A stretch of 64,000 bases of DNA from a candidate division FCPU426 bacterium. Lineage in GTDB: Bacteria; Oederibacteriota; Muellerivitia; Muellerivitales; Muellerivitaceae. Positions 61,342 through 64,000 of the stretch are shown one piece after another. The notes below the pieces were generated by a model. The model was not told the DNA's origin. It worked only from the letters and a program-made list of their open reading frames with translations, and searched no databases. How positions within the stretch are numbered: the first letter of the stretch is position 1; each line of letters starts with the position of its first letter. A program made the position numbers and the translations under genes. Location: the NCBI GenBank assembly GCA_963830915.1, contig CAWHOE010000034.1, forward strand, positions 11,839-75,838. Reading direction: 5' to 3'.

Positions 61342-62446
61342 TTGAGGATCGCCATTGTCCATGATTGGATGACCGGGATGAGGGGCGGGGAGAAGGTCCT
61401 GATGGCCCTGCTGGAATTGTTCCCCGACGCCGACCTGTTCACCCTGGTCTACGATCCTGAAAAAATGGATCCCGCCATCCAAAATAGAAAGATCACCACC
61501 TCTTATTTGCAGAGACTGCCTTACGCGAAAACCCGCTATCAATATTACCTCCCTCTTTTTTGGGAGTTCACCAAGGGTTTCGACCTTTCCGGTTATGACC
61601 TGATCGTATCCTCCAGTTCGGCCTGCGCCAAGTGGGTGAGGAACCCGGATAACAAACTCCATGTTTGTTACTGCCATACTCCCATGCGTTATATCTGGGA
61701 CCAGTTCAACGATTATTTCGGCAGCGGTTTCAACCCGCTGGTGCGGGCGGTCCGCCCGTATTTGCCGGCCTTATCTTCAATGGTGCGACCTGAAATCCAA
61801 CGAGGGCGTCACCCACTTCATCGCCAATTCCACCGAGGTCCAGGGCAGGATCAAGCGGATCTACGGCCGGGAATCGGAAGTCATCCATCCGCCGGTGGAC
61901 GTGGATCGATTCAAGATGAACTGGGTGGAAGGGGATTACTTCCTGGTCCTTTCCGCCCTGGTGCCCTATAAAAAGGTCGATCTGGCGGTCAAGGTCTGTA
62001 CCAAACGCAAATGGCCCCTTGTGGTGGTGGGGAAGGGCGGCGAGGAAAAAAGGCTCCGGAAAATGGCGGGCCCCTGGGTCAATTTCAAGGGCTGGGCGCC
62101 GGAAGAGGATATCCCCAAGTATTTTTCCCATGCCAAGGCCCTGCTTTTCCCCGGTCGGGAGGATTTTGGGATCGTTCCCGTGGAAGCCCTCGCATCTGGT
62201 TGTCCAGTCATCGCTTTTAGCGAAGGCGGGGTGAAGGACACACTGGAGGACGGGGTGACGGGTGTGTTATTCAATGAACAAACCGAGGAATCGTTGGAGA
62301 AAGCGATGGAAAGATTCCTGACCCTCAAATTCGATCCAGAAGTCCTCAACAAGAGAGCCCAGGCCTTTTCCAGGGCCCGATTCCTGTTCAAGACCCAGGT
62401 TTATTTTCGCAGGGTTTTTGGCATAAAACCGATAGGAGAAGAATAG
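61342..62446 (+). CDS. GT4 glycosyltransferase, apparent +1 indel at about 61752
   Basis: HDWMTGMRGGEKV and CHTPMRYIW in one frame, PYKKVDL and EDFGIVPVEA in the next. Confidence 0.85.
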
Positions 62447-62586
62447 TCCACAGTCGACAGCTGACAGTCGACAGAAGGCAGACAACAGACTACAAACGAC
62501 AGTCGACAGAAGGCAGACAACAGACTACAAACGACAGTCGACAGACAAAAGACAACAGCTACCAGAACACAGCGGACAGATCGCAG
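62447..62586 (+). repeat. Array of 20 heptamers, consensus NNNACAG, with an internal 35-bp duplication
   Basis: tccacag tcgacag ctgacag [tcgacag aaggcag acaacag actacaa acgacag]x2 tcgacag ... atcgcag. Confidence 0.95.
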
Positions 62587-62596
62587 AGGGTTCAAA

Positions 62597-62953
62597 ATGG
62601 CATCAGATCATGAAAAGTTGCTCGTTTGGCAAAAAGCGATGGAACTTGTCACAGAGATTTACGAAATCAGTCAAAAATTCCCAAAAGAAGAAATGTATGG
62701 TCTGACCAGCCAGATGAGGCGATCGGCGATCTCTGTGCCTAGCAATATCGCCGAAGGGAAAGGCCGGCACACGAATCCAGACTTCTCCCATTTTTTGATA
62801 AACGCCAGGGGTTCTTTGCTGGAACTTGAAACCCAAGTCCAAATCGCTGGTAATTTAGGGTTTATTAAGAAAACAAAGGTCGATGAATTAAAAGAGAAAA
62901 CAACGGAAATTGGTAAAATGCTCAATGGATTGATCAAGGCTCTCGAACAATAA
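62597..62953 (+). CDS. Four-helix bundle protein (23S rRNA IVP / TIGR02436 / Avd-like)
   Basis: LLVWQKAMEL, FPKEEMYGLTSQMRRSAISVPSNIAEG, ARGSLLELETQ and MLNGLI. Confidence 0.95.
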   Translation: MASDHEKLLVWQKAMELVTEIYEISQKFPKEEMYGLTSQMRRSAISVPSNIAEGKGRHTNPDFSHFLINARGSLLELETQVQIAGNLGFIKKTKVDELKEKTTEIGKMLNGLIKALEQ

Positions 62954-62965
62954 TCCTTGGGTTGG

Positions 62966-63105
62966 CTGTCGGTTGCCGTCTGCCTTCTGTCGACTGTGAG
63001 CTGTCGTCTGTCAGCTGTTGTTTATTGTCTGCCGACTATCATCCGTTGGCTGTGAAGTGTTATTCATTAGCTGTCGACCGTCGACTGTGAGCTGTCAGCT
63101 ATCCT
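62966..63105 (+). repeat. Array of 20 heptamers, consensus CTGTNNN, inverted relative to the upstream array
   Basis: ctgtcgg ttgccgt ctgcctt ctgtcga ctgtgag ... ctgtcag ctatcct. 62978-62997 is the exact reverse complement of 62464-62483. Confidence 0.95.
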
Positions 63106-63117
63106 TTGGGAGGTTCC

Positions 63118-64000
63118 GTGAGAATCCGTTTTCCATCCATATTTTCAGCCGCTAGTTTTTGCCTGGACGGCATTCTGGTGGCTTGTTCTTTTCTCCTGGC
63201 CAACTGGATCAGGTTCAACTCGGGATTATTGAAGGTAGGGGCCAGCGCTCATTACCCCCATTACCGTTCTTTCCTCCTGTTTTTCATCATCATCCATTTG
63301 ATCGTTTTCAAATATGTCGGTCTATACCGGAAACGGAGGGGGATTGGGGTGATGAGCTCTCCAAGGTCATCCAGGCGGTTTTCATTTCCTCCATCCTTAT
63401 CGCCGCTTCCACTTTCTTGATCCAGTTTTTCGCCTTTTCCCGGTTGGTCATTGGCCTCTCGGCGGTGTTGGTGGCGGTCACGGTTTGGCTTGAAAGAATC
63501 CTATTACGACGGGCCCAGATCAATCTGCGCCGTCGAGGTGTGGGGATCACCAGGATCTTGGTGGTGGGGACAGGGGAATCGGCTCAAGTCCTTCTTCAAA
63601 GGCTTCGACAAAACCCAGGGATGGGTTATAGGGTCATCGGTATCGTCTCCGAGGGTAAATCCACCGGTGAGGTCGAAGGCATCAAGATCGTTGGAACATT
63701 GTCCAAATTCACCCAACTCCTACATAAGTATGACCCGGATGAGATCATATTCGCCCTTCCTTCGGTCGCTCACGCGAAGCTTATCCCGATGTTGGTAACG
63801 CTCCAGGATACCCGTGTGAAATATAAGATCGTGTCCGACCTTTTCGGGCTCATCACCAACCCCCTGGAAAATGACGTGCTGTTGGATATCCCGATATTCG
63901 AAATGAAAGAAGCGCCCTTGAGCGCCTGGCATAACCGGGCGATGAAGAGGGTTTTCGACTTCCTGTTTTCGCTCATTGGACTTTTGATCCTTTCGCCCCT
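63118..64000 (+). CDS. Undecaprenyl-phosphate priming sugar transferase (WcaJ/WbaP type), 1-nt deletion at about 63345, 3'-truncated by the window edge
   Basis: SD GGGAGG plus GTG. N-terminal TMs, then ILVVGTGE, GYRVIG, DEIIFALP and AMKRVFDFLFS after the frame change. Confidence 0.88.

Follow-up and report, generated by a model that had tools for sequence, protein, structure and literature searches.

Among the closest described relatives of the element considered here are the intervening sequences (IVSs) of 23S rRNA. That of Coxiella, for example, combines an 'S23p' open reading frame (ORF) with two to three GACAGAT heptamers, these found in its 5' arm and varying in copy number by strain, with RNase III cutting at the first heptamer repeat (PMC4990558). 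The element itself lies between positions 62447 and 63107 of a 64,000-nucleotide stretch of DNA, 'the window', from a candidate division FCPU426 bacterium. It is a gene for a small four-helix-bundle (FHB) protein that is bounded on its two sides by long, mutually complementary arrays of tandem heptamers, and it is the most expanded example met of a class of cassettes that is found across phyla. That shared layout ties the PF05635 protein family to bacterial heptamer repeats which have long gone unexplained.

Tandem heptamers are known also as dispersed repeats, with STRR, for instance, being a heptamer repeat family of heterocystous cyanobacteria. In Xanthomonas, GGGAATC repeats are described as often forming convergent pairs with the G-rich arm first, 70 such pairs being counted, and such 'orphan' heptamer families are described for Nostoc as well (PMC4692102). 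TAACTGA arrays occur among Beggiatoaceae, Cyanobacteria, and Bacteroidetes, and for these, per MacGregor, 'no mechanism is evident' (PMC4679880). More than once, heptamer arrays have been characterized as abundant, as patchy in horizontal terms, and as lacking an explanation (PMC4692102; PMC4679880). The main texts of these two articles mention neither S23p nor four-helix-bundle genes, and where FHB genes in cas operons have been noted, repeats are not mentioned (PMC3936711). Beyond Coxiella, no general link between FHB genes and heptamer arrays was found in the literature searched, which is that lying outside of subscription papers, supplements, and database free text.

The 5' arm of the window cassette (62447..62590; + strand, as are all of the features described here) consists of approximately 20 tandem heptamers of the form xxxRCAG, including TCGACAG, CTGACAG, AAGGCAG, and ACAACAG, and is recognized by direct inspection of the sequence, by Tandem Repeats Finder (TRF), by a search for inverted arms, and by co-folding. 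In composition it is rich in A (0.42) and poor in T (0.07). The original prediction, which was made from the letters of the window, had this arm as 20 copies of NNNACAG at 62447-62586. The array is real, as 17 of 20 successive 7-nt frames from 62447 end in CAG versus a background of 0.012 over window positions 1-62000. ACAG, however, ends only 13 of the 20, i.e., the array is degenerate. At 62450-62558 TRF finds 15.6 copies of period 7, along with a perfect 35-nt unit, that is, of five heptamers, which is present in 2.4 copies at 62463..62545 (score 166, 100% identity). The 3' arm (62959..63107) begins 6-12 nt past the FHB stop codon, consists of approximately 20 tandem CTGYxxx heptamers complementary to those of the 5' arm, and is recognized by the same four means. 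Predicted as 20 copies of CTGTNNN at 62966-63105, it too is real (12 of 20 frames from 62966 start with CTG), but with CTGT starting only 10 of these frames. Here TRF reports period 14, at 62987-63018. The periodic regions slightly overrun the ends first given for them, reaching to approximately 62590 on the one side and extending from approximately 62959 to 63107 on the other.

The two arms correspond to each other closely. The 20-mer at 62464-62483 is found again at 62499-62518, and its exact reverse complement is at 62978-62997, just as had been predicted. The inverted arms overall include stretches of 71 nt (72% complementarity) and 56 nt (79%). Between them is the predicted 118-aa ORF (62597..62953), preceded at the inner edge of the 5' arm by GAGGG (62585..62589), which, given its sequence and its placement 7 nt before the ATG, may be a ribosome-binding site. 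A stable duplex joining the arrays had been expected as well, and this is what folding returns: Over a 676-nt stretch the minimum free energy is -227.8 kcal/mol (z = -5.4, 20 shuffles), with the predicted outer stem pairing 62452-62590 with 62960-63103. Folded together in isolation, the arms reach -128.6 kcal/mol versus -84.9 +/- 5.6 when the downstream arm is shuffled (n = 100). Runs of at least four xxx[AGT]CAG units, furthermore, number 25 in the window's own genome (G000, 89.9% complete) versus 0 in that genome when block-shuffled. As the shuffled controls fall far short of these figures, for run counts and arm co-folding alike, a chance origin of the arrays is excluded.

Convergent-array flanks are a hallmark of the FHB family, with arms matching within a locus but not between loci. 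This was seen across 80 loci, the best 80 of 593 confirmed matches to a search employing a 6-sequence alignment, which are biased toward the window's clade and yet span Acidobacteriota, Bacteroidota, Desulfobacterota, Planctomycetota, Firmicutes, Chloroflexota, the candidate phyla radiation (CPR), and others. (The family is present, as well, in 37 of 60 sampled genomes of the window's own phylum.) Species with loci in this search include Thiobacillus denitrificans RG (L068), Flavobacterium saccharophilum DSM 1811 (L107), Aquimarina atlantica (L133), and Fodinibius halophilus (L126), and Bacteroides thetaiotaomicron is a carrier of the family too. Flanks were scored in terms of lag-7 segments, these replacing Fourier power at period 7 over 220-nt flanks, which is insensitive, indeed low even for the window, since phase slips break coherence. 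The best lag-7 score averages 9.7 upstream and 11.4 downstream versus 3.7 for 1228 control windows from the same loci, with scores of at least 12 found for 20/80 upstream and 28/80 downstream flanks versus 16/1228 controls. Period 8 is enriched also (7/80 upstream and 8/80 downstream versus 1/1228), and no other period is. That the flanks of homologs would carry inverted tandem repeats was a proposal of the original prediction, and arm-to-arm complementarity accordingly is at least 18 in 34 of 78 loci (two having been dropped from the 80 for short flanks) versus 0 of 303 shifted controls of the same geometry. Arm pairing of at least 16 similarly is seen within 47 of 72 loci, eight having been dropped for broken gene calls or short flanks, versus 20 of 600 random cross-locus pairs. 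At most of 28 loci inspected, short inverted tandem arrays can be read directly, with the unit differing by type of site.

The geometry of these arms was described for 87 paired-arm loci, i.e., the above broad set pooled with loci from relatives. Period is 7 in 52 of them, 8 in 15, and 9 in 2, and arms have a median size of 4.7 units, with 5 the commonest. The paired arm begins a median of 4.5 nt past the stop codon and, on the other side, ends a median of 47 nt ahead of the start codon. Paired-arm length has a median of 31.5 nt and a maximum of 105 nt, and the 140-nt arms of the window therefore are the longest among the loci examined. Arms also possess a chirality. The 5' arm, that is, has G in excess of C in 51 of 56 loci and the reverse in 4, and AGT recurs with its phase fixed in 29 of 69 5' arms versus 0 for ACT. 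As convergent pairs are strand-symmetric, this chirality means that the repeat motif always points inward, which agrees equally well with oriented binding sites and with RNA. Neighboring genes, with orientation called by a longest-frame heuristic, are both co-directional with the FHB gene at 54 of 70 loci and opposed at 3 of 70. Since a convergent pair is identical as viewed from either strand, this sense bias concerns the gene and not the arms, and it suggests a dependence of the FHB gene upon host transcription. An Rfam scan of 20 homologous loci returned two tRNAs only, with 0 of the 20 located in rRNA. Among four less regular loci (L179, at G043:C31, along with L015, L077, and L063), some cassettes display period-9 units, GTTTAGAAN, while in others the arrays are nested or doubled and a single side of the gene has both orientations, suggesting inversions or instead arrays within arrays.

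Gene and arms evolve as one cassette, being present, absent, or decayed together. Of the 30 genomes of the window's family, 24 yielded the GT4-type glycosyltransferase gene that precedes the window cassette, and in 22 of these 24 loci it is followed by a sugar transferase gene. In five the FHB gene with its arrays is situated between the two, and a sixth filled GT4 site is locus L150 in G005. Approximately 13 GT4 loci instead have a plain spacer of 70-140 nt with no heptamers, and three hold what, as read by eye, are remnants: L049 and L044 retain a few heptamers, L049 along with a decayed 5' end of the ORF, and L050 retains one solitary three-unit array. Empty as well as decayed alleles of this site, the former something that the original prediction had suggested be sought, thus exist among relatives. 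The arms are of the xxxRCAG type at five of the six filled sites, with GGTTGCC-type arms found at the other (G008). Identity to the window at this site is 59-79% for the FHB protein and 67-71% for the neighboring GT4, similar values that fit an old vertical residence together with repeated loss. Two further loci may be described in their own right. The first, L156 (G027:C29), has an FHB gene of the window's clade, the 5' part of which is masked, i.e., reads as N. The second, L032 (G002:C52), is orthologous to the GT4 site and is neither cassette nor plain spacer, since past the GT4 stop codon there is a repeat-rich insert with palindromic blocks, CCCTCACCC / GAGGGAGAGGG, and then an unrelated gene.

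Elsewhere the unit goes with the protein subfamily. AAAAGGT-like units thus accompany the FHB subfamily found between hldD and purC, GAATTWT units that found upstream of pdxA, AGTTTTA units that found between livG and livF, and GTTAGGA units that found upstream of carA, in each case across genera, with the GTTAGGA and GAATTWT types recurring at further, unrelated sites. Paralogs within a single genome, by the same token, each have a differing unit, as seen with the nine of G043, the eight of G032, and the three of G037. Even for pairs of loci lacking a detectable shared neighbor, mean arm similarity grows with protein identity, from 0.20 at less than 45% identity to 0.36 at 60-80%, a comparison in which same-site pairs may be under-detected.

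Variation closer to the window itself is seen with contigs from four metagenome runs, representing four studies, that were compared with the locus. A 35-nt block, 62463-62497, is missing from a 28-kb contig of run X1 and from a contig of run X2 (62462 being joined to 62498), and array length therefore varies between populations. In a contig from run X4, 62428 is joined to 63125, with 139 other letters replacing the 696-nt cassette, though with one side of the match consisting of only 28 nt, which hints at a cassette-less allele in a close relative. Among more distant comparisons, filled and empty sites are those of different genera, with junctions too diverged to align, such that a target-site duplication is not definable.

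The protein encoded by the cassette scores 140.1 bits with TIGR02436 (cut-off 24; profile positions 1-108 of 109), 148.1 bits with NF008911 (cut-off 137), and 145.4 bits with PF05635, '23S rRNA intervening sequence protein' (cut-off 33.8), and by these profile scores is a full-length TIGR02436/PF05635 member. It matches XCC0516 (PDB 2GSC) at 5e-30, a structure deposited with five chains and described as a homopentameric toroid (PMC4990558). A conserved helix-2 motif, GxxRxxxSxxxNxxE, is given for the FHB family (PMC3936711), and within it R42, S46, N50, and E53 are present while the first position is Q39 and not G. Invariant across 23 relatives are Q39, R42, N50, E53, and E76. The dN/dS of the gene is approximately 0.08-0.11 as measured against three orthologs, with dS saturated. 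With the ORF intact and dN/dS approximately 0.1, the protein therefore is under constraint, i.e., purifying selection. In G000 the window FHB gene is the sole member of its family, though a single-sequence search relates 24,786 clusters (50% identity) to its protein. Pfam returns for this ORF PF05635 and bAvd alone, thus with no recognizable nuclease, recombinase, or transposase fold, and PADLOC returns no match of the gene to a defense system. It is the only ORF inside of the cassette, such that no element-encoded transposase or recombinase is found there.

The same arrays occur without the gene. The original prediction listed such independent occurrence among the findings that would tell against it, and arrays and gene family in fact are not exclusively tied. 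In G000, xxx[AGT]CAG arrays form 25 clusters on 17 contigs, one with the FHB gene and approximately 24 without, and gene-less arrays occur in relatives too. The arrays thus represent a dispersed repeat family of which the cassette is one site. Seven of the G000 clusters have opposite arms within 150 nt, all of them convergent with the RCAG arm first, one of the seven being the cassette, and the remaining clusters are one-sided. A four-unit RCAG pattern is found 42 times in G000, 33 in G029, 23 in G004, 29 in G020, 34 in G005, 58 in G025, 20 in G018, and 11 in G002, versus 0 or 1 times in 16 of the 30 genomes, with controls near zero. Of nine genomes of the window's family without an FHB match, eight have at most one RCAG array, the exception being G028, which is 84% complete. 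In genus g11, arrays number 33 in the carrier, G029, and 1 each in G021 and G010, which have empty sites and no FHB gene. These counts, coming from kin, are not independent and so are descriptive. A candidate rule, that every genome which is rich in xxxRCAG possesses an xxxRCAG-flanked FHB gene, was considered and rejected, as it fails for G025, G018, and G002.

Other unit types behave comparably. GTNAGNA arrays number 19 in G016 versus 1-3 in four other carriers, xAGTxxx arrays number 93 versus 13 in the control for an Acidobacteriaceae genome and 187 versus 5 for an Anaerolineae genome, and octamer arrays number 325 versus 5 for Flavobacterium sp. SUN046. Thiobacillus denitrificans RG has GAGAGxx arrays at approximately 15 sites, including seven convergent pairs and 0 divergent, with the control there void since this pattern is symmetric, reading alike backwards.

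Several of the G000 sites are of interest individually. The clearest gene-less convergent pair, at G000:C71:6081-6290, consists of approximately 85 nt of xxxRCAG and approximately 120 nt of CTGYxxx separated by a loop of approximately 30 nt, with an ABC-2-type permease-like ORF to one side of it and a pcm-like ORF to the other, both of them + strand ORFs. At G000:C16:22240-22506 there is a one-sided xxxRCAG array, 270 nt in length, that stops 28 nt short of the start of a gene for an outer-membrane beta-barrel protein, a placement recalling that reported for TAACTGA arrays in Beggiatoaceae, i.e., just upstream of start codons. At G000:C8:47617-47680 and G000:C47:69650-69735, a common element of approximately 50 nt, containing a small palindrome and with no match in Rfam, adjoins an xxxRCAG array, doing so in opposite orientation; on C47, this element and a second array (65969-66073) bound a 3.7-kb stretch with small ORFs only. 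Intergenic, convergent octamer pairs are present at G000:C1:21355-21467 and G000:C27:106755-106890, these being CACCAAGG / CCTTGGTG and CACAGAGA / TCTCTGTG, and a matching FHB gene was not found for them in this 90% complete genome. Small ORFs adjoining G000 arrays are FHB in 0 of 6 cases, and Rfam finds no family at four other array-bearing G000 loci.

The window cassette is found in sense orientation inside of a series of glycosyltransferase genes that all occupy the + strand. The upstream host gene, encoding the GT4-type glycosyltransferase (61342..62446; ORFs, with Pfam Glycos_transf_1 at 2.8e-28 on 61661-62443), has a stop codon that abuts the first heptamer of the 5' arm. In the assembly this gene is split into overlapping frames, 61342-61971 and 61661-62446, whereas in relatives it is a single frame of 370-390 aa. 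Downstream is a gene of the polyprenyl-phosphate sugar transferase type (63106..64000; ORFs, with Pfam PF13727, the CoA_binding_3 N-terminal part, at 5.7e-18) which runs off the window. It is frameshifted in the assembly near 63344-63350, where contigs of all four metagenome runs have extra letters. The frame breaks in these two genes look like assembly indels and not like pseudogenes. A promoter scan returned one weak site, 62418-62447, not above shuffles, and no promoter-like spacing element within the arrays. Since the 5' array reaches to approximately 7 nt from the ATG, leaving space for GAGGG only, the cassette would lack a private promoter. Scanning 62200-63400 with Rfam returned no family above chance and no rRNA match.

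How, then, might such a cassette function? Lacking a promoter of its own, it would be transcribed within the RNA of the glycosyltransferase operon, and its two arms would pair as a long, bulged duplex of approximately 140 nt. RNase III, being double-strand-specific, would cut this duplex, as experiment has shown for the ORF-bearing 23S rRNA IVS of the PF05635 gene family, thereby freeing the FHB message while uncoupling the flanking cistrons. The arms being tandem arrays instead of plain inverted repeats could supply multivalent binding sites for the FHB protein, an idea that is based on FHB relatives being homopentamers and the typical arm possessing approximately five units. Overall this would be an IVS-type selfish or regulatory cassette, one residing in mRNA instead of rRNA. 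Taken jointly, i.e., as co-transcription plus stem cleavage plus binding by the protein of its own repeats, this is a reading that in our judgment could fall to either side. For it are the hallmark flanks, the unit behavior, the sense orientation, the strong predicted stem, the Coxiella IVS precedent, and the constrained protein.

A number of observations weigh against that same IVS-type reading. Co-transcription, arm pairing, and cleavage at this locus are, throughout, things that we infer. The antisense arms fold better, at -138.2 kcal/mol. A strand-of-transcription test, employing 375 non-Watson-Crick positions of aligned arms as read on the sense strand, gave no RNA-specific signal, with 87 G.U versus 85 A.C, and such near equality is as neutral or DNA-level maintenance predicts rather than a selected sense-RNA stem. 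Arms have no clear tandem structure at 18 of the 87 paired-arm loci, arrays of the same type are present in G000 without any FHB gene, and window-type FHB was not found in the array-rich genomes G025 (58 arrays), G018 (20), and G002 (11). An 'IVS-like element in an mRNA', which is how the original prediction summarized the cassette, consequently holds in part, that is, for the duplex, the flanks, and the empty sites, but not for arrays which are also dispersed without the gene. It is the best available frame, and one that needs widening, to a class of cassettes found across phyla and to arms that are also part of a dispersed repeat family.

A further reading, tentative and less probable than the IVS-type reading itself, though possible, is that PF05635 proteins are sequence-specific binders of tandem 7-9-nt repeats. 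Their pentameric rings would each read approximately five units, in the way that spaced triplets are read by TRAP, with each paralog matched to its own unit, and they would be the missing partner of the STRR, TAACTGA, GGGAATC, and xxxRCAG repeats. With the gene lying inside of a convergent pair of its own sites, and with those sites multiplying in some lineages to dozens of copies that lack the gene, the result might be a selfish system resembling a REPtron (a RAYT transposase gene flanked by inverted REPs, with REPs dispersed genome-wide; REP, repetitive extragenic palindrome; RAYT, REP-associated tyrosine transposase) or instead a post-transcriptional regulon that is based on a new protein-repeat code. 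In line with this repeat-binder reading are that there is one unit type per paralog and that the unit tracks protein clade; that the commonest arm is five units, with a five-unit block also being the indel seen here; that AGT keeps a fixed phase in 29 of the 69 5' arms while ACT does so in 0; and that genus g11 has 33 arrays in its carrier versus 1 in each of its two non-carriers.

Alternatively, the cassette could be a mobile element acting at the level of DNA, one that resembles a REPtron or else an autonomous element along with its MITEs (miniature transposable elements with inverted repeats). The arrays would be inward ends, the FHB protein or a recruited host enzyme would copy, move, or maintain the repeats, and arrays lacking the gene would represent non-autonomous copies, their amplification occurring in bursts. 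The one gene-bearing and approximately 24 gene-less sites of G000 are as expected from this, as are lineage-specific bursts (xxxRCAG at 33 in G029 versus 1 each in G021 and G010, GTNAGNA at 19 in G016 versus 1-3), the convergence of all seven near array pairs in G000 and likewise of seven in Thiobacillus denitrificans RG, and the presence of alike cassettes, in protein as well as arms, at different sites. The approximate equality of G.U and A.C, too, fits homogenization of DNA. Against this, the protein is a 118-aa, all-helical bundle with no recognizable nuclease, recombinase, or transposase fold; no target-site duplication is definable given how diverged filled and empty sites are; the six GT4-site copies look to be vertically inherited (FHB at 59-79%, GT4 at 67-71%); and G025, G018, and G002 are array-rich without a cognate gene. 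We consider this to be rather unlikely, though a DNA-level system and RNA processing can coexist.

More doubtful still is that these are ordinary host repeats, whether slippage-prone heptamer microsatellites or REP-like hairpins that stabilize or punctuate operon mRNAs, with the FHB gene as passenger or as preferential inserter. Gene-less heptamer arrays indeed are common in G000 and elsewhere, orphan heptamer families have been described for Xanthomonas (PMC4692102) and for Beggiatoaceae, Cyanobacteria, and Bacteroidetes (PMC4679880), and G000 has octamer hairpins without a matching FHB gene. Empty alleles of the GT4 site nevertheless bear no arrays, meaning that the arrays were not pre-existing there, awaiting a gene. 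Nor would a host-wide repeat give rise to paralogs of one genome differing in unit. The unit, moreover, tracks protein clade across genomes and sites, and the association spans phyla with very different repeat sequences.

Still less credible, and by a good deal, is a contingency (phase-variation) switch, by which heptamer copy number would tune the downstream sugar transferase and hence exopolysaccharide. The arrays are found directly upstream of the start of that gene and differ in length by 35 nt between populations, but the same architecture is seen at unrelated sites (purine, pyridoxal, carbamoyl-phosphate, and ABC-transporter genes), FHB genes by report occur in cas operons too (PMC3936711), and the arrays contain no promoter-like spacing element. 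Recurring at unrelated sites, the architecture is a property of the cassette and not of the glycosyltransferase operon. Finally, that the gene is an orphan Avd, i.e., the accessory protein of a diversity-generating retroelement (DGR), was rejected as next to incredible since weak similarity (PF22296 bAvd, 48.7 bits; PHROG 'Avd protein of DGR', 4.9e-15; NF033474, 4.2e-11) comes with an NF033474 score, 43.1, that is below its cut-off of 80, with a PF05635 score three times that of bAvd, and with no reverse transcriptase (PF00078) in G000 at its 89.9% completeness, template and variable repeats not having been searched for.

What is at issue goes beyond a single locus. PF05635/TIGR02436 is a large family without known function, with members in rRNA, in cas operons, and in housekeeping operons. 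If FHB proteins and heptamers belong together, then both that problem and the problem of the heptamer arrays are open to simple experiments. Were this true, then cassettes as well as gene-less arrays would have to be reckoned among the elements by which operon transcripts are cut or structured. In annotation, the convergent-array signature offers a practical way of marking cassettes along with their decayed remnants.

In comparing with known systems, the likeness to ORF-bearing 23S rRNA IVSs, which the original prediction had pointed to, is upheld. As with those of Leptospira, Coxiella, and others, the protein is of the PF05635 'S23p' family, the ORF is located in the loop of a stem of terminal inverted repeats, and the orientation is sense within the host transcript, with the GACAGAT heptamers of Coxiella also close to the xxxACAG units of the window (PMC4990558). 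Unlike with IVSs, the window cassette is found between protein-coding genes instead of in rRNA helix 25 or 45, its arms are 140-nt tandem arrays versus a 28-bp stem, and RNase III cleavage, shown for IVSs, is for the window cassette something that we infer. REPtrons are similar in having a gene inside of inverted copies of a repeat which is dispersed gene-less as well, and in their lineage-specific amplification, but the window protein, as a small helical bundle, differs from a Y1/HUH transposase, its repeats are tandem 7-9-mers and not single palindromes, and its mobility is putative. The Correia/nemis elements of Neisseria are hairpin repeats in mRNAs that are cut by RNase III. They too are inverted repeats co-transcribed with flanking genes, giving rise to long stems in operon RNA, which for the window are predicted, but they are without an ORF and without tandem periodicity. 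Avd, along with XCC0516 (2GSC), has a homologous four-helix-bundle fold, but the window FHB is without a reverse transcriptase partner, and we know of no flanking of Avd by tandem arrays. The orphan heptamer families, lastly, are intergenic tandem 7-nt units, usually two to six of them, that are dispersed and length-variable (GGGAATC, PMC4692102; TAACTGA, PMC4679880), and the window arrays are dispersed heptamer simple sequence repeats (SSRs) in this same sense, i.e., intergenic, tandem, dispersed, and variable in length. The difference is that no associated protein is named for the orphan families in those articles, whereas with the window and its relatives a specific gene family is found inside of the pairs.

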